Positions 1 to 14,683 of a stretch of DNA of 14,683 nt are shown here, one piece after another. The stretch lies in NCBI GenBank assembly GCA_048885865.1, contig JBHLLF010000056.1, positions 1 through 14,683 on the forward strand, in the 5' to 3' direction. The stretch comes from Candidatus Hermodarchaeota archaeon. Lineage in GTDB: Archaea; Asgardarchaeota; Thorarchaeia; Thorarchaeales; Thorarchaeaceae. Made by a program: the position numbers and the translations under genes. Each line of letters opens with the position of its first letter. The first letter of the stretch is position 1. Below the pieces are notes generated by a model. The model made no database searches. It was not told the origin of the DNA and saw only the letters and a list, made by a program, of their open reading frames with translations.

Positions 1-1671
1 CTGGTGGAACGTGAATCAACCATTGGTGGTCATGTAGTCCAATTGCCGGTTGTCGCACCCACAGGTAAGTCCGGAAAGGAGGTCTTCAGCAGCCGACTCA
101 ACGCCCTTGAGAACGACAAGAACATTGATGTGATGACTGACACGACTGTGAAATTTGCTGAGGGCGAGATGGGCAACTTCACAATTCATTATACTATTCC
201 AGATGAAGAGGATGACAAGACACTAAAGACCTCAGCAGTGGTTTTGGCAACAGGGTTCCAAGAGTTCAAACCCACAATGATGGACGAGTATCATTATGGG
301 AAGAATCCGGATGTCATAACACAGCTCGAGTTCTCCCAGATGTTGACAAATGGTAGCATGACACGTCCTTCAGATGGAACACCTGTGAATGACGTAGTAA
401 TGGTCCAATGTGTTGGCAGTAGGTCTGAGGATTACAAGCGTGACTGCAGCAAACTCTGTTGCACATTTGCGATTGATAACTCATTGGAGCTTCTTGAGAA
501 GAACCCTGATGCGAATGTACAGGTCGTGTACATGGACATTCGTGTACCATTCGAGAATGAGATGATATACAAGGAGTCTAGAGAGCGAGGAGTCGACTAC
601 ATCCGAGGCAGAGTCAGCATGGTCTGGGAGAATGATAATAAAACTCACATTCGTATCTATGACTCACTTCTCAATCAATATCTAGAGAGTACCCCCGATC
701 TTGTGGTTCTCTCCACTGCCATTCTTCCGTCGGATGGTATAGCTGAACTGTCTGAAACATTCGGCTATGCACTTGAGGAGGATGGCCATGTCAAGGACCT
801 CTATGGCAAATTGAGACGGACTGAAACACGCAGACGTGGTGTTGTTGCAGTAGGTGCTATCACACGCCCACAGTTCGTCTTTGAAGCAGTCACAGATGCT
901 CAAGCTGCTGCTCTTGTCTTGCATAACGAGCTTCAGGGAGGCAAGATTGAGAAACTGGCACGAGGCGCAGTCCTTGATGTTGATGAATGCGTGGGCTGTA
1001 GTCTTTGTGCACAGCAATGTCCTCGTGGCGTTCCTCTGATGATCGAACAGACAGACTCTGAGGAGGAGGACGAGGCACAGAAGATCTTGTTCAAAGCAGC
1101 AATTGACACACTGAATTGCCACTCATGCGGAGTATGTCAGAGCCTATGTCCTTCAGGTGCTACACAACTCAATTTCCTATCAAACTCACAGTTATGGTCT
1201 GAAATCGAAGCAGTTCTTGAAGGAGCGGACTCTCAGTACCCAATCACTGTGTGCTTCTATTGTGAGGAGTGTTCTGTTTCGACGATAGACATCGTAGGCA
1301 CTCGAAAGATGGAGTATGATGCTAGCTCTCGGTTGATTCCAGTGCCATGTGCAGGAAGAGTTTCTATTATTGACATCTTGAAGGCCTTTGAACATGGAGC
1401 CAGTGCTGTGATGATTGCCGCCTGCGAGAAAGACCGATGCCATATTGGAGGGACTGGCAATGAGATTGCACAAGTCCAAGTAGATGTCACTCGTGATATA
1501 CTGAATGCAATTGGCTGGAAAGGCGAACGTGTCGATATGTTTCGAATGTTCAGTGCTGAGCCTGAGAGATTCACAAGTGCAATCCGTGAGATGGTTAAAC
1601 GAGCCAAAAAGCTCGGGCCTACACCAGTGCATACGGGAACGGCTGGCAAATGGATGGAGGTGACCGAGTGA
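1..1671 (+). CDS. hdrA: HdrA/QmoB-like FAD/Fe-S flavoprotein fused to a 2x[4Fe-4S] ferredoxin and a C-terminal MvhD domain (5'-truncated by window edge)
   Basis: Frame is open from base 1 (LVERESTIGGHVVQL resembles the HdrA 'LVEKxPxIGG' segment). Has the motifs VVLATG, RPSDG, QCVGSR..CSKLCC, YMDIR and DLVVLS, two CxxCxxCxxxCP motifs (CVGCSLCAQQCP, CHSCGVCQSLCP), and an MvhD-like tail (FYCEEC, VPCAGRV, AACEKDRCH, ERV..KLGPTP). Confidence 0.88.
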   Translation: MVERESTIGGHVVQLPVVAPTGKSGKEVFSSRLNALENDKNIDVMTDTTVKFAEGEMGNFTIHYTIPDEEDDKTLKTSAVVLATGFQEFKPTMMDEYHYGKNPDVITQLEFSQMLTNGSMTRPSDGTPVNDVVMVQCVGSRSEDYKRDCSKLCCTFAIDNSLELLEKNPDANVQVVYMDIRVPFENEMIYKESRERGVDYIRGRVSMVWENDNKTHIRIYDSLLNQYLESTPDLVVLSTAILPSDGIAELSETFGYALEEDGHVKDLYGKLRRTETRRRGVVAVGAITRPQFVFEAVTDAQAAALVLHNELQGGKIEKLARGAVLDVDECVGCSLCAQQCPRGVPLMIEQTDSEEEDEAQKILFKAAIDTLNCHSCGVCQSLCPSGATQLNFLSNSQLWSEIEAVLEGADSQYPITVCFYCEECSVSTIDIVGTRKMEYDASSRLIPVPCAGRVSIIDILKAFEHGASAVMIAACEKDRCHIGGTGNEIAQVQVDVTRDILNAIGWKGERVDMFRMFSAEPERFTSAIREMVKRAKKLGPTPVHTGTAGKWMEVTE

Positions 1672-3935
1672 GCGAATCCAAGAGTCTGTCTGATATGGCA
1701 CCAAAACGAAGACGCATGATGGACATGGTCTTGGCACTTGGCGGTCTGAAAGAGGAAGCCGTTATCCCCCTCAGCAAGGTCAGTGAGGAGATATCCATTC
1801 TGAAGAGCGAGCTAGAGCCACTTACTGCTGAGATTCTTGCATTTCCCGATGCCTACTTCAAAAAGTTCCTTGACGCCTCTGAGAAGTCTGACACCATCAG
1901 TCGAATAACCGATAAAGGGCTACTGAGCCAGGCCACCAAGAACCTTCAGGAGGCAGTTTCTCTCCGTGACACACAGGGCACTCGTGGCCTCCTCAATTTG
2001 ATAAGTAGCGCATTAGAGGTTTTAGAAGTCACAGATGAGATTGCAGACACTGCAACGGTCGATATCGAGTCAGTTCTGAGTCCAGTATCTGGTCTAATCA
2101 CACAGATTGAAGAGGCAGTCACAGAGTTTGAGGCTGATGCTGAAACTGCTGCGGAATCAGCTCGATCTGAGCTGCAATCGCTGATCGCCTCGATATCAGA
2201 GGCCGTTTCAGGAATCCAAGATGACGTCACATCAGCTTTGGACGCTCTTCAGAAGCTAGGGACGAAGACCAGATATGGGCCATTTCTTAGAACCTCAGCT
2301 CAAGTGAAACGAGGGATTCGCGAGGGGCGTATTGATGAAACACGCGCATTATGGTTAGTTTCTGAGAATATACTGACTGAACTCAGACGTGGAGTAATCA
2401 TGTTCATCCTGTCCAAGATGGGCTCTCGCACGGTCCTCGAAATCAGCAGACTGATGGAAGCACGTTCGCCCGACATCCAGACAGCCATAGTAAGCATGAT
2501 TCAAAGAGGTGAGGTTGAGATGGTTGGTCTCGACGAGGACGCGCCTATATTTTCACGAGTTCTTGAATCCATTCCAAGTTCTACATTGGTATTCAAGAGA
2601 CTACTGCAACAACTCAATGGCATAGGAAAGTCGCTTGAGGGTGATGTACAAGCCTCTGTCAACCAATCGGTAGAAAGAATGGAGCTTTTGCTTGGTAGGC
2701 TTCAGAAGCTTGGCCAATACGATGAAACCAGTCTTGCTGAACCCATGAACAACCTACGAGAAACTATCGATCACGCAACTGAGGCTGTTCTCAAATCAAA
2801 GCCCGCAGACAGCTCTGAAGATCTTCGCCTACTTGTTTCTGCAGGTCTTGAGGCCTTTGCCAGATTCAGACTGAAGATTACACTGGAAAAGGGTCCTAAT
2901 CTTGTTTCCGGGACCAACGTCTATGGGGAGAAACTAGACCCAGAAGTCTATGAGAGAATGATGTCCAGCTATCTGGATAACGAGATTGAACGTGGAACAA
3001 TCCTCATTCTCATCCGCGAATTAGGCGCAATGACTGCCAAGGATCTTGGAGAGAAGACGAACATCCCCAAAGACCGGATCTTGCAGCATCTGCTTCGCAT
3101 GAAAAGAGACGAGCTGCTCACTTCAGCAGGCGAGAGTCACGGATATCTTCTCTATGATGTTCCTAGGACCCCCACAGAGGCCGAACTCGCAATTGAAACA
3201 GCAAGTTCTCTGGCACTTCAACTCAATGAGGCATCATCTAAACTTGAGGCCCTTCTTCAAGAACTGAAGGCTGAGGACATTGGCAAAGTCGTTAATGCTC
3301 TAGAAACCCTGTCAAAGGGTCGCGACAAGTTGGTCAAGCTCACGATTGAGGGAACTGTGGTGGGAGAGGAGTTGCTCATGGAAATCGAGGAGAAGATACT
3401 TTCAGCTGTATCCCTTTCCTACCGTACACGAGCCAAGATTCCCAGTACTCGTCCAAAGGTGACATTGGACGACTTAGCCGAAGTAGATGTTCCATCAGTT
3501 CTTGATGAATACAAGGCAATGATGGGCTATGCTCCCTTGCTTGGATTTGGCACAATTGAGTGGGACATTTCCAAGTGTCTTGGCTGCAAGTCCTGTGAAA
3601 TTGCATGTCCTGAGGACGCAATTGAACTGAAGCCAGTGATGGAGGTATCCAAGATTTTTGATATCTCCGATGAGGCTCTCGATGATTTGCCCGTTAACAG
3701 ATCACTCTTCTACAAGACTGTCAAGGCTCTTGCGACTGAGAAGCCCAAGAGAGATATTGTTCTGGCAGATGAATCACCTGGCTTTGGAAAAGTCGAGGTC
3801 GACCTCTGGCTGTGTGTAGCATGCCGGACATGTGTAAGACGATGTCCAGGTCCTAGAGAGGGTGCACTTGAACTGGAACTCAGATGGAGCCTTCCAGAGG
3901 TAGTTCGTCAGATTACAAGCCAGACCGATACCTAG
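1668..3935 (+). CDS. Large helical protein with two winged-helix-like modules and a C-terminal 2x[4Fe-4S] ferredoxin
   Basis: ORF track starts at 1650, but in-frame GTG at 1668 overlaps the hdrA TGA (GTGA) and is the likelier start. Two similar wHTH-like segments (ELRRGVIMFILSKMGSRTVLEISRLM..; EIERGTILILIRELGAMTAKDLGEKT..). Cys motifs CLGCKSCEIACP and CVACRTCVRRCP. Confidence 0.75.
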   Translation: MSESKSLSDMAPKRRRMMDMVLALGGLKEEAVIPLSKVSEEISILKSELEPLTAEILAFPDAYFKKFLDASEKSDTISRITDKGLLSQATKNLQEAVSLRDTQGTRGLLNLISSALEVLEVTDEIADTATVDIESVLSPVSGLITQIEEAVTEFEADAETAAESARSELQSLIASISEAVSGIQDDVTSALDALQKLGTKTRYGPFLRTSAQVKRGIREGRIDETRALWLVSENILTELRRGVIMFILSKMGSRTVLEISRLMEARSPDIQTAIVSMIQRGEVEMVGLDEDAPIFSRVLESIPSSTLVFKRLLQQLNGIGKSLEGDVQASVNQSVERMELLLGRLQKLGQYDETSLAEPMNNLRETIDHATEAVLKSKPADSSEDLRLLVSAGLEAFARFRLKITLEKGPNLVSGTNVYGEKLDPEVYERMMSSYLDNEIERGTILILIRELGAMTAKDLGEKTNIPKDRILQHLLRMKRDELLTSAGESHGYLLYDVPRTPTEAELAIETASSLALQLNEASSKLEALLQELKAEDIGKVVNALETLSKGRDKLVKLTIEGTVVGEELLMEIEEKILSAVSLSYRTRAKIPSTRPKVTLDDLAEVDVPSVLDEYKAMMGYAPLLGFGTIEWDISKCLGCKSCEIACPEDAIELKPVMEVSKIFDISDEALDDLPVNRSLFYKTVKALATEKPKRDIVLADESPGFGKVEVDLWLCVACRTCVRRCPGPREGALELELRWSLPEVVRQITSQTDT

Positions 3936-5709: not shown

Positions 5710-6630
5710 TTACTCGGTTTCAAATGGCACACAAAGTGATGAAGGCGCTCCTACGATACGCTTCACATTCTGCATATTCAATAACACTCCCCATATGACC
5801 AAGAAGAGGATTGTAGACATTGAAGGCAACATGTTCAGGAACGCGGTCGGTACACCTAGTGGCTGGAATGTATAACGAAGGACATCGAACGCACCAAAGA
5901 TGTAGCTTCCGACGAAAGCCCCGATAGGATGCCACAGTCCGACCACTACCAAGGCAATGACTATCCATCCACGTGCAGTCGTGATACCTTCGACCCACAT
6001 CGGAATCCATGCAAGAGTCAGATACGCACCTCCAAGGCCACACATCATCCCACCAAATATCACACTCAGATACCTGATTCGAACCACATCAACGCCCTGT
6101 GTATAGGCAGCCATTGGATTCTCTCCAACACTCCTTATCATTATTCCAAAACGTGTCTTGAAAAGAACAAACCAAAGGACGGGGATCATAATGTAGGAGA
6201 AGTAGACGAGCAGATTCTTGTTGAAGAAGATTGGCCCAATAATCGGTATCGCACTGAGGCCAGGAATGGCCACAGCCCGAAATGGGACTATTGGTATTCC
6301 TATCAGTCCTAGGCCCAGAATACTACTCAATCCTGTTCCAAGTATGGTCAGAGATATGCCTGAAACAACCTGGTTCCGCTTGAATGTTATCGTCACTATT
6401 GCATGAATGAGTGCCAGAAGGCCACCAACTAATGCACCGACCAATGCTCCAATCCAGAGGTTGCCTGTTATATGAGCCGCCGCGAAGGCGCCAGCCGCAC
6501 CCGAGATGACCATCCCTTCAACTCCCAGATTCAGTACGCCTGATCGTTCAGATATCATCTCACCCAATGTGGGTATCAGAAAGAACGTGGCGGCAACAAC
6601 AATCTGTGACCCAGTCTGCTCAATTGTCAC
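5710..6630 (-). CDS. Nucleoside/sugar ABC transporter permease 2 (CUT2 family)
   Basis: LGEMISERSGVLNLGVEG, KTRFGIMIRSVGENP, ARGWIVIALV; hydrophobic. Likely start GTG 6630 after GGAGG (ORF track start 6648). Confidence 0.9.
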   Translation of the reverse strand: MTIEQTGSQIVVAATFFLIPTLGEMISERSGVLNLGVEGMVISGAAGAFAAAHITGNLWIGALVGALVGGLLALIHAIVTITFKRNQVVSGISLTILGTGLSSILGLGLIGIPIVPFRAVAIPGLSAIPIIGPIFFNKNLLVYFSYIMIPVLWFVLFKTRFGIMIRSVGENPMAAYTQGVDVVRIRYLSVIFGGMMCGLGGAYLTLAWIPMWVEGITTARGWIVIALVVVGLWHPIGAFVGSYIFGAFDVLRYTFQPLGVPTAFLNMLPSMSTILFLVIWGVLLNMQNVKRIVGAPSSLCVPFETE

Positions 6631-7810
6631 GACGTAACCTCCCTTCAACTGTATATCGTAGGAAGAACTCGGTCACTAGAACAAAGAAGAGAATGGCTCC
6701 ATTGAAGAGATTTACCACCCCAAAGGGTAGACCTGCGGACTGTATTTCAATTCCTCCAGCCAAGAGCCCCGCAAAGAAGAGGGAACTCACTATGACTCCC
6801 AAAGGATTGAGACCGCCAAGCCACGCAACAGCAATGCCCGTGAATCCAAGTCCCGTAGAAATCTCCATTCGCAAACGGTAGAGATTGGGGTTTCCTGCGA
6901 CTTCACTCACTCCTGCAAGTCCAGCCAAGCCACCTGAGAGCAGAACAGTGATTATTGCTACTTTGAGAAAACTCATTCCCATGGCTTCTCCGGCCTCAGG
7001 ATTCTCTCCTATCACATTGATTTCATAGCCTAGCTTTGTTTCTGTTATCCCCTCCCTGGTTCTAACAAGATACTGATGAATAAGTAGCGTGAGGGCTATC
7101 GCCACAAGGATGGTAAGATGGATTCTAGTTGTCGGAAACAGAGGTATCTGGGCCGATTCGGGTATTATTGGCGATTGAGGGAAGCCCCACCCTTCTGGAT
7201 CCTGCCATGGACCAGTGACAAGGTACTCAACGAGATATAGTGCAGGGAATACAAGCAGAAAACTAATCACTACATCAGAGCCCTTGAACTGGCTCTTCAC
7301 CCTAAAGATTGCGATTGGCAGTGCCCAAAGAGCACCCGCAGCAAAACCTGCTACGAACATGAGTGGAATCAGAACCGCACTGGGCAGGTGCTGAAGAGAG
7401 AATGCCACTCCTGTTGCTGCAATGGCCCCAACGATGAGTTGACCTTCCGCCCCTATGTTGTCTATCTTAGCTCGAAACGGCACAGCCAGGCCTATGGCTA
7501 CCAGCAGCAATGGAATGAATCGGGAAAGAGTTTCAATAATTCCATATCTTGTGAAGAACGCCACCCTGAAGATGTTGATATAGAGCGCAATCGGATTTAT
7601 TCCATAAGCGAGAAATACGATGGCAACTACCGCTAATCCGAGAATCAGTGAGAGGATCCTAATTCGGACAGATTGCTCAAATGTCAGCTTAGAGGGTCTT
7701 TTCCGGAAAGTAATCTCAAACGGCCAGAGCTTTTTCTTGAGAAAAGCAATCCCTGTGCTGAGTCTAGTTTTGAGCCTACTGAGTTGAGTTCCTAGATTCT
7801 CCATATTCAC
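6620..7810 (-). CDS. Nucleoside/sugar ABC transporter permease 1 (CUT2 family)
   Basis: FRAKIDNIGAEGQ, TKLGYEINVIGENP, LSGGLAGLAG, GFTGIAVAWLGGLNP; multiple TM segments. Confidence 0.9.
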   Translation of the reverse strand: MNMENLGTQLSRLKTRLSTGIAFLKKKLWPFEITFRKRPSKLTFEQSVRIRILSLILGLAVVAIVFLAYGINPIALYINIFRVAFFTRYGIIETLSRFIPLLLVAIGLAVPFRAKIDNIGAEGQLIVGAIAATGVAFSLQHLPSAVLIPLMFVAGFAAGALWALPIAIFRVKSQFKGSDVVISFLLVFPALYLVEYLVTGPWQDPEGWGFPQSPIIPESAQIPLFPTTRIHLTILVAIALTLLIHQYLVRTREGITETKLGYEINVIGENPEAGEAMGMSFLKVAIITVLLSGGLAGLAGVSEVAGNPNLYRLRMEISTGLGFTGIAVAWLGGLNPLGVIVSSLFFAGLLAGGIEIQSAGLPFGVVNLFNGAILFFVLVTEFFLRYTVEGRLRRDN

Positions 7811-9391
7811 CTAGTTCCCCTCCTCTAGAGAATCAGCAACATATCCTCCCATCATGAGACCAACCGTTTCTCGAGTTGCCTGCTCAGATGGCAAAGTACC
7901 AATGATTTCCCCCTTGTAGATCACACTGATTCTATCACATAAGGTGAGAATCTCAGTCAAATCGCTGGAAACCAGAAGGACTGCTGCTCCCACATCACGT
8001 TGCTTTAGAAGTTCTTCACGGACGAATTGAGTGGTTGCAACGTCTAGCCCGAATGTTGGATTCTCAGCAATAAGAATCTGCTTTGAGCCCTGCCTTGGTT
8101 TGCGTGAGATTTCTCGCGCCACGACTACCTTCTGCTTGTTACCTCCGGATAGACTTCTCATCGGCGCTAGAGGACCAGGAGTGTCTATCGAGAACTGCTC
8201 TATGAGATGATTCGTCAGTTTGACCATTGCATCTCGATCTATCAATAATCCTTTCGAATCAGAATAGTAGCTCATCATCAGGTTATCTCTCACAGTGAGG
8301 TCCAACACCATGGCCTTTTTCCTATTCTCAGGGATGTATGACACACCTAGGTTCCTGATAGTCCCAACAGGCATATTCGTGATGTTCTGTTCGCCGTCGT
8401 CTGAGTGCAACAGGACTTCTCCCGTCTTCACATCTCGTAGATGCACTATCGCTTCCAGTAGTTCTCGCTGACCGTTACCTGCAATTCCAGCAACACCTAG
8501 AATCTCACCACTCCGGACACTGAGATTGATGCTGTTCACAACTTGCATTCCCATGTCATTATCGACGCACAAATCTCGAGTCTCTAGCACAATTTGACCC
8601 TCATGCAATTCCGTTCGCTTCAGGTCATATAGTGCATCTCGTCCCACCATTAGCTGAGCAAGTTCTCGAACACCCTTTCTCGGGTCTGACTTTAGATGCT
8701 CAACTCGTTTCTCATCAAGCGTATCGACTACCTGCCCTCTTCTCAGGACTGTTATTCGGTCACTAATCCGAATCGCTTCTTCCAAATGATGAGTTATTAT
8801 GACTATGCCCTTTCCTTTAGCTTTCAATGATTCGAGAAGAGCGAATAGACCATCGACTTCAGGTGGAGTCAGCATTGAAGTAGGCTCATCAAGAATTATT
8901 ATCCCTGGATCGGTGATGAGCGCCTTTAGTATCTCAACTCGTTGTTTCTCACCACCAGAGAGCTTCCACACCCTCATCTTTGGATCGAGTTCGCCCAAGT
9001 CAAACCTCTGTAACGCTTCTTTCACAGCCTTTTCTACTGTTTCTATTGATAGAAAGAAGCCCTCAGTCAGACTCAGGACATTCTCCGCAACGGTGTGTCT
9101 CTCAATCAGAGTGCGAGACAAATCTTGATAGGCTATTCCAATCCCGTTTTCAAGCGCATCTCGTGGTGTTCTTAATTCGAGTTCCTTTCCCTCTATGATT
9201 ACAGTTCCACTGTCAGGTCTTCGACATAGATTCATGACAAGAGTGCTCTTCCCCGCTCCATTCTCACCAAGAAGAGCATGTATCTCTCCTTTCTTGAGTG
9301 TGAAGTTGACATGGTCATTCGCACGAATCTCAACCTCACCCTCACCATAGTAGGTCTTACAGACTTCCCGCATCTCGAGCGCAGTTTCCAT
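7811..9391 (-). CDS. ABC transporter ATP-binding protein with tandem ATPase domains (CUT2 family)
   Basis: Walker A GENGAGKST, LSGGEKQRVEI, ILDEPT; second domain GIAGNGQ, LSGGNKQK, ENPTFGLDV. Likely start ATG 9391 (ORF track start 9418). Confidence 0.93.
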   Translation of the reverse strand: METALEMREVCKTYYGEGEVEIRANDHVNFTLKKGEIHALLGENGAGKSTLVMNLCRRPDSGTVIIEGKELELRTPRDALENGIGIAYQDLSRTLIERHTVAENVLSLTEGFFLSIETVEKAVKEALQRFDLGELDPKMRVWKLSGGEKQRVEILKALITDPGIIILDEPTSMLTPPEVDGLFALLESLKAKGKGIVIITHHLEEAIRISDRITVLRRGQVVDTLDEKRVEHLKSDPRKGVRELAQLMVGRDALYDLKRTELHEGQIVLETRDLCVDNDMGMQVVNSINLSVRSGEILGVAGIAGNGQRELLEAIVHLRDVKTGEVLLHSDDGEQNITNMPVGTIRNLGVSYIPENRKKAMVLDLTVRDNLMMSYYSDSKGLLIDRDAMVKLTNHLIEQFSIDTPGPLAPMRSLSGGNKQKVVVAREISRKPRQGSKQILIAENPTFGLDVATTQFVREELLKQRDVGAAVLLVSSDLTEILTLCDRISVIYKGEIIGTLPSEQATRETVGLMMGGYVADSLEEGN

Positions 9392-9468
9392 GTAAACTTC
9401 CCCTACAATCTTCGGCACTGTACGAGGATTTGTAGTATTTCAATAGTAGGCTTCTAGAAAAAATCATC

Positions 9469-9500
9469 AAAAAGAAAGAAATGGGGGATGCTAGTCCCCC
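9469..9500 (-). terminator. Hairpin plus U-rich tract after the substrate-binding gene (partial terminator or stabiliser)
   Basis: Minus strand reads GGGGGA-ctagca-TCCCCC (9500-9483) followed by ATTTCTTTCTTTTT, 10 nt after the stop codon. Confidence 0.6.
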
Positions 9501-9510
9501 TTAAGCTAGG

Positions 9511-10719
9511 TCATGGAGTGGGTATGTCCGCAATAATCCCTTCTACAAACCAATCTATTGTCAACAGCGTTCCCATGTCGGCGCGTTCTCCGGCTGCTAA
9601 CCATTCTGTTCCATTTTTATAATTCAATGGTCCTGAGAATGGATCAAAGACCACATTTGGATTGCTCATCTGTGCAATTCTTGTCATGACAAGATCGTAG
9701 ACACTTATGGTACCAAGAAGCGGATCTGTCACATCGATGGCCTTGAGATCATCTTCGAACAGGGGATTGATTGGAACTCCAAACTCGCCGCCGAGTTCGA
9801 TTCCGCCCTCCTGCAACAACCAAAGATAGTCGACATCTTCAAGGTTCGTGTTTGTATATTGACCAAGGTAAATCTTCTGGATTATATCGTCATAAATCAC
9901 ACCCCAGTCCGCCAACTGGCCACTAATCGTGCTAGTTGGAGCATAGGACTGCATGGGTGAATAGTGACTGAAGACATACACATCGTCTGTAGAGTTTGCC
10001 ACAAGTGGGACAGCCGTAGAGTCTTCCGTGAAGGCAAGCATGTCAACACCTGTTCCTATCAGAGCATTAGCTGCAGTTGTAGCTCCAGCAGGATCAAACC
10101 AATCTGTCTGAAGCCAACGAACATCACAGGTAACAGATGCATTGACCTCTCTTGCGCCAATAGCAAATGCATCGATGTGCCTAATTAGCTCTGGAAGTGG
10201 GAATGCTGCAACATAGCCAATCTTACCTGTCTGGGTGAGTGCACCTGCCATCAGTCCATTCAGATAATACAGCTGATAGAAGTCTGCAAAGTACGTGCCT
10301 ACATTATCACTCCTCAGATAGCCTGAACAGTGGAAGAATATCTTGTCAGGATGTCGAGATCCAGCTGCAATAGTCGCATCCATGAATCCAAATGACGTCG
10401 TGAAGACCACATCGCAGCCCTCATTCTCAATCAGATAATCGATTCTGTCCCCAGCCTGCGCCTCTGGCACAGACTCCAAATACGTCGTGGTGAGCCAGTC
10501 ATATTTGTTATCTATGAACAGCCTCCCCTGATCATGTGCATGGGTCCACCCGTAATCTCCTATAGGCCCCACGTAGATAAAGCCCGCCTTCAGAGTTCCA
10601 AGATCAGTACCTGGACCGCCTGGTGCACCAGCATAGGTCAGGAAGCCTACTCCGAAGCCGAGGCCAACGCCGACTATAAGAAGAATAACGGACATCGCCA
10701 TGGTTCTTGAACTACTCAA
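9511..10719 (-). CDS. BMP-family ABC transporter substrate-binding protein (probably purine nucleosides)
   Basis: N-terminal TM anchor, KAGFIYVGPIGDYGWTHAHDQGR, FTTSFGFMD, YLNGLMAG, KIGYVAAFP, WFDP. Confidence 0.92.
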   Translation of the reverse strand: MSSSRTMAMSVILLIVGVGLGFGVGFLTYAGAPGGPGTDLGTLKAGFIYVGPIGDYGWTHAHDQGRLFIDNKYDWLTTTYLESVPEAQAGDRIDYLIENEGCDVVFTTSFGFMDATIAAGSRHPDKIFFHCSGYLRSDNVGTYFADFYQLYYLNGLMAGALTQTGKIGYVAAFPLPELIRHIDAFAIGAREVNASVTCDVRWLQTDWFDPAGATTAANALIGTGVDMLAFTEDSTAVPLVANSTDDVYVFSHYSPMQSYAPTSTISGQLADWGVIYDDIIQKIYLGQYTNTNLEDVDYLWLLQEGGIELGGEFGVPINPLFEDDLKAIDVTDPLLGTISVYDLVMTRIAQMSNPNVVFDPFSGPLNYKNGTEWLAAGERADMGTLLTIDWFVEGIIADIPTP

Positions 10720-11491
10720 TTTTTCTCACGCTCACACATAAAGTGCTGAGGTGTTATCTCCCGGCAACAACCTCTAGCAAATCATGGCATCTCACGCCTA
10801 AATATCTTGTCAGAAATGCTCAATCAATCATTTGAGCGAAAGAGATGATTGAGTCTCCAAAACGCAGGAAAGCCGCCCAAGTCTTAGCTCCAACAGAGTT
10901 CGATCTTTCTCGTTCAGTCAAGCTACTTTTTGTGTATCTTGTACCATCGAACCAGTACTTCGACACATAGCCTAACCGTCCGCCAACCTGTTCTTGTACT
11001 GTCTTTATCGCTCAACCACTTTCGATTGGGTTCATGGTCTTGCTCAGTACGCAGAGCCCAGACGCTATTGGTAGGCGCCTCCTGAGCGGCTTAACTATAG
11101 TAAAGAAGCTTCCGCTAATAAAGTCTGAGATGTCTGCACAAATCTGAGTTTAGGCACTAGAATTACTCCATTTCGCAAATATCTGAACATTGATAGGATG
11201 GACATGTAAGTTCTTGATCGATTTTGATGAAGGTCTTCAAACCGTGCATCAATGGAATTCCTGTCCTGAAGAGAATGGGCACGGTGAAGGAAGTCGAATC
11301 TCTGGTAAAGGAAGTTGCACCAAGAAAAAGACACAAGCCCTCAAAGATGAAGGCTTGAACCAAGTCGGTGCATGCATCCGAAGATATCCACTTAATCAGC
11401 TGATGATTCCATCCAACAATGATTGCCATGTTTCGGTATCTGAAAGATTATATGCTGGATAGAAACCAGCTTCATTACATATCCTGGATGA

Positions 11492-11911
11492 ATGCGAATT
11501 ATGCCTCCGAAAGACATGAACATCATCGTGTTTGGCTGTATGCAGTGTATGTACGCCGCAGCGGACCTGGCAGGCACGATGAAGCTGCAGTACGATGTGG
11601 CGGCGAGAATCATCCGAATGCCGTGCACCGCGAGGCTCGATATCAACTTCATCCTGAAGGCGCTGCAGGAGGGGGCTGACGGCGTGCTGGTGGTGGGTTG
11701 TCATCCTGGAGACTGCGCGTACAAGACCGGAAATCTGGGGGCAGAGAGAAGAGTCCGTTTTGCTAGAAAGCTTGTTGGTCAATTGGGCCTAAATGAAGAC
11801 CGCGTAAAGATGGTGTTCGTGAGTGCCGCTGAGGGGGACAAGTTCGCCACTGAGGTCAACAAGTTCGCAGAGGAAATCAGGAAGATAGGACCGAATCCTA
11901 TCAGGCTTTAG
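11492..11911 (+). CDS. mvhD: Hydrogenase iron-sulfur subunit MvhD/FlpD ([2Fe-2S])
   Basis: FGCMQCMYAAADLAG, MPCTARLD, GADGVLVVGCHPGDCAY, GN..AERR, RVKMVFVSAAEG.KF, GPNP. The true start may be a few codons later (MPPKD). Confidence 0.93.
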   Translation: MRIMPPKDMNIIVFGCMQCMYAAADLAGTMKLQYDVAARIIRMPCTARLDINFILKALQEGADGVLVVGCHPGDCAYKTGNLGAERRVRFARKLVGQLGLNEDRVKMVFVSAAEGDKFATEVNKFAEEIRKIGPNPIRL

Positions 11912-11958
11912 CAGTACCATTTTAATTCATGAAGTTAATCCTTCCATGCGTGCTGAAT

Positions 11959-12486
11959 ATGCCAGAAACCGCTCTTCTTGTGATAGATATGCAATTGGGG
12001 AATTTCCAGGGGGAAAATCCCATCGAAAACGGAAGAGATCTGTTGTATAATGTGAATGCTTTAATCAACAAGGCACGAAAGGCCAATGTTTCAGTATTCT
12101 ACATAATGAACAAAGGTTCTGAAGGAGACCCAGATGAGCCTGGCACTGAAGGTTGGGAAATCCATCCTGAAATCACACCCCTTGAGGATGAAATAATTGT
12201 CGAAAAGGCAACTCCTGATGCCTTCCATGAAACCACACTCAAGCAGAGACTGGAGGAGTTGGATGTTTCAAGATTGATTATGGCTGGTCTTCAGACCGAG
12301 TATTGCATTGACACAACATGTAGACGTGGGTCGCTACTTGGCTATGAGGTCGTTTTAGTGAGCGATGCACATGGTACTTGGGATAGTGAATTGTTGAGTG
12401 CAGAACAAATCATTGCACATCACAACAGAGTACTTGCAGGATGGTTTGTGACTCTGAATAAAACGGATCAGATTGCCTTTGGATGA
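11959..12486 (+). CDS. Isochorismatase-family cysteine hydrolase (array unit 1)
   Basis: ALLVIDMQ (Asp), VEKATPDAF (Lys), GLQTEYCIDTT (Cys) triad, LVSDAHGT. Likely start ATG 11959 (ORF track start 11929). Confidence 0.9.
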   Translation: MPETALLVIDMQLGNFQGENPIENGRDLLYNVNALINKARKANVSVFYIMNKGSEGDPDEPGTEGWEIHPEITPLEDEIIVEKATPDAFHETTLKQRLEELDVSRLIMAGLQTEYCIDTTCRRGSLLGYEVVLVSDAHGTWDSELLSAEQIIAHHNRVLAGWFVTLNKTDQIAFG

Positions 12487-12518
12487 CTCCAGCGCTCAAG
12501 ATTGTCGGACTTATGAAT

Positions 12519-12599
12519 GAGGGTGACAAATTCGCAGCTTAAATCAACAAGTTTGCTGAGGAGATTCGGAAGATAGGACCGAACCCGATTGGGCTCTAG
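12519..12599 (+). repeat. mvhD 3'-end copy 1 (degenerate direct repeat of 11831-11911)
   Basis: Translates EGDKFAA*INKFAEEIRKIGPNPIGL* versus mvhD EGDKFATEVNKFAEEIRKIGPNPIRL*; 64/81 nt identical by hand alignment, no gaps. Confidence 0.96.
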
Positions 12600-12641
12600 T
12601 GAGCAATAATTTTTGAGCGCAAATACTGAGATAGAGCTAGG

Positions 12642-13340
12642 ATGACGGGAGACTTCGACGACAATCAGGACTTAGAAGAATCTGAGTTGTATGAATCTGG
12701 CACTGATATGGAAAGAGTGAAGGCAGAATATAGAGCGTCAGCACGCAGACATGCCATACGCGGAGTGGTATTGCTATTCACCCCCATATTGACATTCATT
12801 ATTCCACTCTTGGCATCTGCAGAGTATTATGACCAAGTCTTCGTTGGAACCCTTGTAGGTACCATGGTTTTGGCGATAATTGGAGTTGTCTGGCTTGCTT
12901 TTTACGGAGTAGGAACAATGATACTACTCAGAGGCTTCGATATATTGGCAAGGGTTAGCCCATCTGAACCAGTACTCGCAAGACGCTATGCCATAGCAAA
13001 GGTCAATGACGTGTATCTACTTGCTCATGGTATAAGTGGACATCTCATCGCAGTTGCCTTTAGAGGAATGCCTTTTGCAGCATCAGATAATCGGATCAAG
13101 CTGCCTAGAATGTTCTATAGATGGGAGAGCAAGGTTGACATTGCGGGAGTAACTATGTTCCGCAGAGAAGGCACTTTTTCGGTCCCCATATCACAAGAGG
13201 AGTGCATTATTGGAGATGCTGTTCTTTATGGGTCTCCATACCAACCATCAAAATACAATTGGAATGTTCCAGAATTCACGAAAGAGCAGCTGATGGCAAT
13301 TATCGAATACATCAAAGAAGATGTGAACCGTCAATACTAG
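12642..13340 (+). CDS. Hypothetical membrane protein, about two TM helices (array unit 2)
   Basis: 232-aa ORF with acidic N-terminus, two hydrophobic stretches and a soluble C-terminal domain; fills the space between repeat copies 1 and 2. Confidence 0.75.
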   Translation: MTGDFDDNQDLEESELYESGTDMERVKAEYRASARRHAIRGVVLLFTPILTFIIPLLASAEYYDQVFVGTLVGTMVLAIIGVVWLAFYGVGTMILLRGFDILARVSPSEPVLARRYAIAKVNDVYLLAHGISGHLIAVAFRGMPFAASDNRIKLPRMFYRWESKVDIAGVTMFRREGTFSVPISQEECIIGDAVLYGSPYQPSKYNWNVPEFTKEQLMAIIEYIKEDVNRQY

Positions 13341-13421
13341 AGAATAATCGTGCATCTTAAACTCATTCAGCCTATCGGAATCTTCATTCATCTCTGGACT
13401 ATAAACTCTCAGAGGTGTCCA

Positions 13422-13502
13422 GAGAGAAACAAGTTTGCCGCAAATGTCAATAAGATTGCTGAGAAGACTAGGAAGATTGGCCCAAATCCTATTAGGCTAT
13501 AG
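13422..13502 (+). repeat. mvhD 3'-end copy 2
   Basis: Translates ERNKFAANVNKIAEKTRKIGPNPIRL*; 60/81 nt identical to 11831-11911, no gaps. Confidence 0.95.
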
Positions 13503-13521
13503 CCTCAACTAGATCTGCTGC

Positions 13522-13890
13522 CTAGACCCTTTCAAGTTGAGCTTTGACACTAGATCCACAGTAGCTGCATTCAGCTTCAAGAGGGCCACCCCACTTAATC
13601 TCCGTTCCAGAGAGCAAAGTTCCGCAATTGGAGCAGCGGACCGACTCACGACCTGTACTAATCTCAGTGATGTTTGACCCCATCTGGCCGCGGTTTCCTT
13701 TACCAATAACAAATGACGGAGTTTCTAACACAAACCTTCCGCGCATCCTAGGGCGGAGCATAAAGAACCTTAGTAGCACGATAGCTAACACAATGAAGAC
13801 AATTGGCATTAAGATGACGAAAACCTCTCCTAAATACTCGGAATCCCAAAACCCTATGACCAGCATAATGCTCTTCTCACACAAAACCAT
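13522..13890 (-). CDS. Small membrane-anchored zinc-ribbon protein (array unit 3)
   Basis: TM helix (VFVILMPIVFIVLAIVLLRFF) followed by basic residues; C-terminal CSNC..CSYC pairs. Confidence 0.72.
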   Translation of the reverse strand: MVLCEKSIMLVIGFWDSEYLGEVFVILMPIVFIVLAIVLLRFFMLRPRMRGRFVLETPSFVIGKGNRGQMGSNITEISTGRESVRCSNCGTLLSGTEIKWGGPLEAECSYCGSSVKAQLERV

Positions 13891-13933
13891 GTTTAATTAA
13901 ACGCATATTAAGATAAACATTCTCATCTGCCTC

Positions 13934-13996
13934 ACAGAGATAAACAGGTTCGCAGCTGAGATTCGAAAAATCGGTCCAAATCCTATCAGGCCCTAG
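13934..13996 (+). repeat. mvhD 3'-end copy 3
   Basis: Translates TEINRFAAEIRKIGPNPIRP*; 47/63 nt identical to 11849-11911, no gaps. Confidence 0.94.
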
Positions 13997-13999
13997 ATA

Positions 14000-14446
14000 T
14001 CAGAGTCGTTTCTTCATAGCATAGGCACGGACCTCAAATCCCGTCTTCTGATATAGATGCAGTGCCGCTTCAGCCTCAACTGGACAGTGGAGAAGCACCA
14101 TGTCAACACCCCCTTCTCTGAGAGCATCAAGCAGTCTTTCCAACAATAATCTACCCACACCCTGACCACGTGATGAGGAGTCAACAGCTAAAAGCTCTAT
14201 CTGAGCCACCTTGGAAGCATGCCATCGGTCCAAGACCGCAGTGGGAACTTCTTTGATGTATCCAAAGACAAAGCCAACAATAGAGTGTCCGTCCTCTGCA
14301 ACAAGAAGTCCATTTGGAAAAGCGGCATCGACTTGAAAGTCGGCCTCAGTAACGTCTGAGTCAAAGGAGGCGTATCTGTTTGCTAGAGGAATTATATCTT
14401 CAATGTCATGAGGTGTGGAGGGACGAATAATCATAGATGCATTCAT
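14000..14446 (-). CDS. GNAT-family N-acetyltransferase (array unit 4)
   Basis: IIRPSTPHD, LLAVDSSSRGQGVGRLLL (acetyl-CoA motif A), ALHLYQKTGFE. Confidence 0.92.
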   Translation of the reverse strand: MNASMIIRPSTPHDIEDIIPLANRYASFDSDVTEADFQVDAAFPNGLLVAEDGHSIVGFVFGYIKEVPTAVLDRWHASKVAQIELLAVDSSSRGQGVGRLLLERLLDALREGGVDMVLLHCPVEAEAALHLYQKTGFEVRAYAMKKRL

Positions 14447-14509
14447 GTGACGCTACTATTTTAATTGGTGTCCTAGTTGAAGTCTGATTATACTTGACGA
14501 CTTAAGTGT

Positions 14510-14651
14510 GAAGACCGCGTGAAGACAGTGTTTGCGAGAGCAGCCGAGGGACAAAAGCTTGCCGCTGAGGTTGAAAAGCTCGCCGACTATAGTTGTAGCA
14601 AAATTCTGTACCTGTAGTAAAGAAGATATAACTTGAGCAGATAGGCTATAG
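14510..14651 (+). repeat. mvhD 3'-end copy 4 (interrupted or decayed)
   Basis: 14510-14587 translates EDRVKTVFARAAEGQKLAAEVEKLAD versus mvhD EDRVKMVFVSAAEGDKFATEVNKFAE (58/78 nt to 11795-11872). Weaker remnants follow: AAGATA at 14623-14628 and AGGCTATAG at 14643-14651. Confidence 0.88.
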
Positions 14652-14683
14652 CCATGAACGAATCCGATTCACTGGATTCATCA

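Follow-up and report, generated by a model that had tools for sequence, protein, structure and literature searches.

A gene array at mvhD in a Thorarchaeota genome as a candidate record of RNA-guided allele replacement

The stretch of DNA analyzed here (the window; 14,683 nt, contig C56, GenBank JBHLLF010000056.1) belongs to G000, a Thorarchaeota metagenome-assembled genome (MAG; 3.58-Mb assembly, 87% complete, 5.3% contamination), and contains the redox gene mvhD (FlpD, PF02662) followed by an array of short genes and decayed mvhD pieces. It was compared with approximately 105 distinct mvhD-type loci from relatives; G and L numbers denote related genomes and related loci, respectively. With a probability of roughly 0.6, the array is read as a fossil trace of successive RNA-guided replacements of the mvhD allele by an upstream aCas1-TnpB element, with capture of cargo genes. 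Alignment of the loci shows a guide antisense to mvhD codons 10–15, a recoded self allele, and nested old and new modules, with variable cargo on both sides. In this layout, old 3' parts from codon 14 onward lie downstream, and old promoters with codons 1 to approximately 11 lie upstream.

The mvhD array and its breakpoint

The current mvhD allele is intact (11501–11911, + strand); the conserved start is the ATG at 11501, the stop is at 11911 and the product is 136 aa. Downstream, four same-strand decayed mvhD pieces (61–83 bp) alternate with four mutually unrelated genes. This one-gene rhythm had been described in a sequence-only reading of the window and was confirmed using blastn and gene calls. 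Cargo 1 encodes an isochorismatase-family hydrolase (11959–12486, +; PF00857, E 2e-35), 75% identical to the cargo directly after mvhD in L099, and is followed by remnant 1 (12518–12599, +; 79% nucleotide identity), which has an internal stop. Cargo 2 encodes a 232-aa membrane protein (12642–13340, +) of no Pfam or NCBIfam family, with homologues at the same hotspot in L170, L104 and L060. Remnants 2 (13421–13502, +) and 3 (13933–13996, +), both identified by nucleotide match to mvhD, flank cargo 3, a 122-aa membrane protein with Zn-ribbon motifs (13522–13890, −). Cargo 4 is a GNAT acetyltransferase (14000–14446, −; PF00583, E 7.8e-17), the commonest cargo of the mvhD hotspot. The last piece had been placed at 14510–14651 and called a tail copy; the match was retained for 14509–14587 (+), an internal piece of about codons 99–124 without the stop-codon end, while 14588–14651 was not mvhD-like.

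The pieces showed 76–79% identity to mvhD when the whole G000 genome was searched using blastn (E 1e-13 to 1.4e-5, far beyond chance), and no tail copies were found outside the array in the 3.58-Mb assembly. Differences from the resident gene fell at third codon positions in 49 of 72 cases; divergence therefore took place when the pieces still belonged to working genes, which bears out the earlier idea of displaced ends of former mvhD alleles. A diversity-generating retroelement was rejected because the differences follow codon position 3, not adenines. Logan contigs from the sediment runs of one study covered 12100–14683 in one piece with 6 differences and 11211–12045 with 0 differences. The array is thus reproduced by independent contigs, and the four copies did not arise by chimeric binning. 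The array is real, and its pieces are, to judge from their substitutions, the left-over ends of earlier mvhD alleles.

Among relatives, the distance from the mvhD stop to a conserved HD-domain gene ranged from 199 to 8,953 bp (43 loci), and one to four mvhD copies were present in 22 of the 50 loci having 3 kb of downstream sequence. In G000, C56 ends at 14683, inside the variable region, and the conserved downstream block opens contig C5, without overlap. GNATs, MFS proteins, DUF3368/UPF0175 + PIN toxin-antitoxin pairs and HEPN/AbiV proteins recurred as cargo in differing order, so that the variable content and order anticipated for this locus were found. Cargo began a few bases past an mvhD stop in relatives, and the same type of cargo stood behind the working mvhD in one genome and behind a displaced copy in another; each unit thus consists of an mvhD 3' part and the next gene. 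Near-complete copies were polyphyletic (13 changes for 16 copies); they shared 73–94% identity with the resident allele, and synonymous codons greatly exceeded replacement codons (e.g., 52:2, 44:4 and 68:10). Ungapped identities were discarded for three indel-bearing copies (L070, L073 at 5022, and L092). By these measures the near-complete copies derive from related yet distinct lineages, and the mvhD locus has evidently taken up genes serially.

The start of the near-complete copies was fixed. All 31 began at gene nt 40 ± one base (Met14), although their upstream contexts fell into 12 unrelated clusters; the boundary, gene nt 39/40 between Cys13 and Met14, corresponds to 11539–11540 (+) in the window. 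Bases +1 to +9 matched in 23–31 of the 31 copies, diagnostic upstream G positions in only 3–5 of them, and no conserved element end or arm was seen beside the 31 junctions. Third positions at the boundary vary freely (0.39–0.61). Shorter copies had scattered starts (nt 239–366), the pattern expected from erosion, and the short tails of the window are, on this comparison, eroded remnants of copies broken near the mvhD 5' end. Seven displaced 5' stubs were located upstream of mvhD; they end at nt 27–36, and most are preceded by an old promoter and an old guide. In both G024 and G018, a 13-kb insert that includes aCas1-tnpB lies between the 5' stub and the present mvhD. Codon-14 copies and 5' stubs together indicate that mvhD was repeatedly split within codons 10–14.

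Three other accounts of the copies were rejected: a five-base target-site duplication, because the 5' stubs stop at nt 27–36, short of nt 44; the 3' tail as an att site, because intact copies already begin at codon 14 and the starts of the short tails are scattered; and functional truncated proteins initiated at Met14, because 8 of 31 copies lack that ATG base and several have stops or frameshifts. At L122 (G011) an mvhD piece starting at codon 14 was seen on a contig other than that of the resident gene. At L055, L057, L061 and L068 mvhD has different surroundings: upstream, the HD-domain block is inverted, and a tRNA gene follows directly downstream; copies and guides were not seen at mvhD in these four loci.

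The upstream TnpB element, its guides and its partner

An intact TnpB/Cas12f-like gene of approximately 600 aa was found upstream of mvhD in 20 related loci, usually 100–320 nt away. RuvC and Zn finger regions are present in this TnpB-family protein, and its model matched AsCas12f and TnpB structures (E 3e-14). RuvC-I D235, RuvC-III D431 and a relocated E397 were invariant in 15 loci, with Gly at the canonical RuvC-II Glu position; a RuvC site with its Glu relocated in this way has been shown to be active in TvoTnpB (10.1101/2023.06.13.544871). At its 3' end, tnpB has a conserved scaffold that includes a GTTCACTCA motif and is followed by about 17 nt antisense to mvhD codons 10–15. The antisense 14-mer followed 32 of 193 scaffold-tip-like sites (chance 6.7e-5 per site). 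The breakpoint described above coincides with the target of this guide RNA, and the breaks of both gene halves fall within these 17 nt. Copies were present in 18 of 32 loci with a guide or tnpB vs 8 of 28 without (p=0.039).

The window retains only the scaffold tip and guide (11357–11385), and the system here is a remnant. The tip (11357–11368, +) corresponds to the conserved end of the scaffold in tnpB genes linked to mvhD, with the GTTCACTCA motif itself eroded, and the guide occupies 11369–11385 (+). The rest of the scaffold and tnpB were not found in the 87% complete G000 using a scaffold hidden Markov model (HMM) and tblastn. A BRE/TATA-like motif (11440–11454, +), the putative mvhD promoter, is kept upstream of mvhD in nearly all relatives. 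The protospacer-equivalent region (gene nt 28–44) lies at 11528–11544 (−), with a putative target-adjacent motif (TAM) adjoining it at 11545–11549.

The guides avoid the allele to which they are linked. That of the window mismatches its own mvhD at positions 6, 9, 12 and 15, all third codon positions, and at 17, while it matches the L170 allele perfectly over 17 nt and the L066 allele over 16 nt. Generally, guides matched the linked allele at non-degenerate positions, including 5–8 seed bases, and mismatched it at wobble positions 9, 12 and 15, where own-allele matches were 6% observed vs 36%, 41% and 28% expected, respectively. A metagenome replicate gave the same direction more weakly (17/31/3% vs 30/43/23% expected). 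For 68 pooled guides in 56 loci, 2.6 wobble mismatches were counted vs 1.95 under permutation (0/10,000), and a run of 12 or more bases was shared with the self allele by 1 guide and with another genome's allele by 56. At L081 the guide follows an amino-acid change in its target. Comparison of guides and alleles shows that the linked allele would escape its guide through synonymous changes. A T-R-C-A-T flank was present in 6 of 20 linked alleles at intact-tnpB loci vs 28 of 49 where tnpB is absent, a weak hint of possible TAM escape.

A second scaffold copy, which lies upstream of tnpB and whose guide repeats tnpB's own promoter, gave the guide register independently; scaffold-like units thus stand at both ends of the gene. 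In L123–L162 and in mvhD-linked loci this copy lies about 90 nt upstream of tnpB, and its 9–16 nt guide repeats an upstream TATA-like promoter. The self-promoter target is preceded by TTCAT (8/9, mvhD clade) or mostly TTAAT (others). The promoter match suggests RNA-guided autorepression.

Several variants of guide organization were observed. Two or three tandem mvhD guides for alternative wobble alleles form a CRISPR-like mini-array at L044, L081, L094, L097, L112, L183, L196, L197 and L205. Mini-arrays of 2–4 scaffold-tip units lie 3' of tnpB at L129, L130, L132, L139, L142 and L159; their spacers resemble the 16S rRNA 3' region, to judge by the 1492R and anti-Shine-Dalgarno sequences. Paralogous guides at L138, L149, L150, L151, L153 and L157 match G000 genes for tRNA-Gln, tRNA-Arg and tRNA-Asp, and these tRNA genes adjoin homologues of each element's flanks. 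A divergent sub-clade (L038, L053, L070, L107, L176 and L193; 43–49% to the others) has a different post-tip sequence that forms a hairpin. Folding of a 226-nt scaffold piece was no better than that of shuffles, and an Rfam search gave no credible match.

A gene for a giant protein of 1,400–1,960 aa stands head-to-head with mvhD-type tnpB at nine mvhD loci and many other sites, and several intact tnpB loci lack it. Sequence searches (Pfam, NCBIfam, PADLOC, PDB and Atlas features) were blank, and only fold comparison placed it. In the model (predicted local distance difference test score 86.5), residues 1–215 aligned with Cas1 (Z 12.9, root-mean-square deviation 3.9, 179 residues), with more than 10 Cas1/casposase entries, and residues 587–870 aligned with RecA-like folds. 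E69, H157, D165 and D168 are invariant, and a PD-(D/E)xK motif is present. On the strength of the model, the pair of tnpB and giant partner agrees with the aCas1-TnpB loci described by Altae-Tran et al. 2023 (PMC10691335). Neither the giant partner nor canonical Cas1 families were found in G000 at its 87% completeness.

Proposed route of replacement and competing explanations

The aCas1-TnpB element is the likely cause of the array; cutting followed by one-sided repair is its probable route, held somewhat less firmly. By this route, donor DNA with the element and a recoded mvhD would enter a relative having a guide-matching allele, and the TnpB ribonucleoprotein would bind that allele and break the DNA inside the protospacer. 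One broken end would then recombine homologously with the donor mvhD, while the other would be joined non-homologously, by a presumed joining enzyme, at a more distant point of the donor DNA. A right-arm event would place the new mvhD 3' part and the donor's next gene(s) before the old mvhD from codon 14 and the old cargo. A left-arm event would install cargo, the element and a new promoter, with the old 5' stub staying upstream. Reuse of a displaced copy as second homology arm would spread ready-made units of an mvhD piece and one gene, giving the one-gene rhythm. Non-functional copies would erode later, as in the window, where tnpB and aCas1 were not found.

A number of observations weigh against this interpretation. 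Cleavage, expression and DNA transfer are all inferred from sequence. The permutation P values are overstated because the genomes are related and not independent, and the 'perfect 11 nt' test did not reach significance when the metagenome replicate was taken by itself (3 vs 5.0, P=0.19). Candidate TAMs disagree (TTCAT at self-promoter targets, T-R-C-A-Y at mvhD), and CAA and CAG are equally frequent among displaced copies (16 vs 14). Decay had no clear relation to array order, a proximal-to-distal gradient being rejected since it fits only 7 of 12 arrays. With no detectable tnpB, giant partner or Cas1 in G000, the array is not tied to a resident enzyme. The 3' copies begin 5 nt from the TAM, whereas characterized rearranged TnpBs cut 15–22 nt from it (10.1101/2023.06.13.544871); a plain break does not explain this precision.

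Such precision is what chiefly speaks for the strongest competitor, a possible but clearly less probable mechanism in which TnpB would pick the site and the giant aCas1 would join a free donor 3' end to mvhD nt 39/40 in a Cas1/casposase-type reaction, the other side being resolved by the RecA-like domain or by host recombination. This would be RNA-guided integration without Tn7 machinery. The Cas1-like and RecA-like regions of the partner, its invariant residues and nuclease motif, its head-to-head position with tnpB and a junction that is exact to the nucleotide in mvhD but arbitrary in the DNA joined to it all favor such joining. It is opposed by the lack of a conserved element end before the copies, by 5' stubs that end variably (nt 27–36) and do not overlap the 3' copies, so that there is no target-site duplication, and by the intact tnpB loci without the giant gene; moreover, a Z near 13 for a helical domain calls for caution.

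Much less probable is a guide that only represses mvhD through deliberate mismatches, in the manner of TldR, the copies being unrelated local duplications or the product of homology-facilitated uptake at a conserved anchor gene. The same TnpB family has short guides against its own promoter, the seed bases match self, and the canonical RuvC-II Glu is replaced by Gly. On the other hand, the relocated Glu is invariant, mismatches occur where the gene and not only the guide can vary freely, guides match foreign alleles perfectly, and both mvhD halves break inside the 17-nt target.

The sequence-only reading had proposed an integron-like platform in which circles of one gene and an mvhD tail integrate serially. 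A trans-acting tyrosine or serine recombinase would carry this out, and integrons or e14/phage 21 at icd would be the models for it. The one-gene periodicity, the fixed boundary, units recurring in different order and integron-type cargo (GNAT, toxin-antitoxin, HEPN/AbiV) agree with this idea, which is nevertheless very unlikely. No PF00589 (tyrosine), PF00239 (serine) or PF01797 (Y1) protein was found in the 87% complete G000; PF00589 occurred in 3 of 15 genomes of the same genus, no such gene lay beside mvhD in the genomes searched, and the control matched in 14/14. No PF00589 protein, not even a XerA-like one, was seen in G000 or in 12 of the 15 same-genus genomes (62–92% complete). Folding of all four repeats on both strands gave no attC-type hairpins (z −0.8 to +1.3), the boundary has freely varying third positions and no conserved arm, the break is at codon 13/14 instead of the 3' tail, and no circle joints were seen in the assembled contigs, the only material examined for them. 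The guide and the 5' stubs would also go unexplained. One integron trait, variable single-gene units at one locus, is present; the mvhD array is not an integron. An assembly chimera of several strains, to which the contamination of the MAG and a contig end inside the variable region might point, is next to impossible, since the Logan contigs reproduce the array without joints, the copies carry stops and truncations, and copies occur in nearly half of the related loci with sufficient downstream sequence.

Two further features lie upstream in the window. An ABC-transporter operon (5710–10719, −) occupies the variable region upstream of mvhD and, among the fetched mvhD loci, is common only to the close relatives G008, G010 and L169; it is probably left-arm cargo. 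The gene at 1650–3935, conserved upstream of the hotspot, overlaps the stop of an HdrA-MvhD fusion and encodes a 761-aa protein with long helices, a weak TrmB-like winged helix and two 4Fe-4S motifs.

Relation to known systems and significance

Asgard aCas1-associated TnpB loci were catalogued previously as Cas1H-Asgard-1/-2, and that paper states no target, guide boundary or mechanism for them (PMC10691335). The mvhD element shares with these loci an Asgard TnpB, a Cas1-like protein and the GTTCACTCA motif at the tnpB 3' end, and differs in having a guide after the scaffold tip, a host protein-coding target, an avoided linked allele and a breakpoint with cargo arrays. It resembles the TnpB-omegaRNA systems of IS200/IS605 and IS607 (OMEGA) in TnpB fold, in an omega-RNA over the gene 3' end and in a 3'-terminal guide of about 17 nt. 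Unlike theirs, its guide does not correspond to the sequence flanking an empty donor site but is antisense to a neighbor gene 130–170 nt away, and no Y1 or serine transposase lies beside it.

In intronless homing by free-standing homing endonucleases such as T4 Seg/Mob, the nuclease gene lies beside a conserved gene, self and non-self are told apart by sequence differences in that gene, and flanking DNA is co-converted (review PMC13565253). Likewise, the tnpB gene adjoins a conserved target in the 20 intact loci, and the self allele differs at the recognition site. By analogy, we propose that the mvhD element works like intronless homing, but RNA-guided. It differs from T4 Seg/Mob in being reprogrammable, chromosomal and archaeal, in its multi-guide mini-arrays and Cas1-like partner, and in leaving displaced gene halves, not clean conversion.

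The array is like an integron in its single-gene cargo split by repeats, its growth at a fixed proximal point and its similar cargo classes; unlike an integron, it has no IntI and no attC hairpins, its repeats are decayed protein-coding halves and its cargo lies in both orientations. When e14 or phage 21 inserts at E. coli icd, incoming DNA restores the protein-coding gene and the old 3' part is left as a pseudogene. The mvhD array differs from this case in having no integrase or conserved att arm, in units of 0.5–2 kb and in the displacement of 5' halves too. Among the papers searched, none dealt with an RNA-guided Cas12f-type system in Thorarchaeota. New here are the self-avoidance statistics and the fixed 3' boundary. 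For this element, the target, the self/non-self rule and the insertion scars are readable from sequence.

Tentatively, Thorarchaeota may harbor a natural RNA-guided gene drive and integrator, in which TnpB would pick foreign alleles by synonymous differences and a Cas1-nuclease-RecA partner would join arbitrary donor ends at a fixed base in the R-loop. If so, RNA-guided DNA insertion would have a third route in addition to CRISPR-associated transposons (CASTs) and bridge recombinases, with integron-like cargo arrays built from displaced gene halves. The aCas1-TnpB elements have been catalogued without a known target or job, and the mvhD locus offers a guide, a target, immune and sensitive alleles and base-level junctions, so that the mechanism is directly testable. 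It would be the natural counterpart, in a protein-coding gene, of engineered recoded gene drives, and would give Asgard archaea a recombinase-free way to gather accessory and defense genes at a core metabolic gene.

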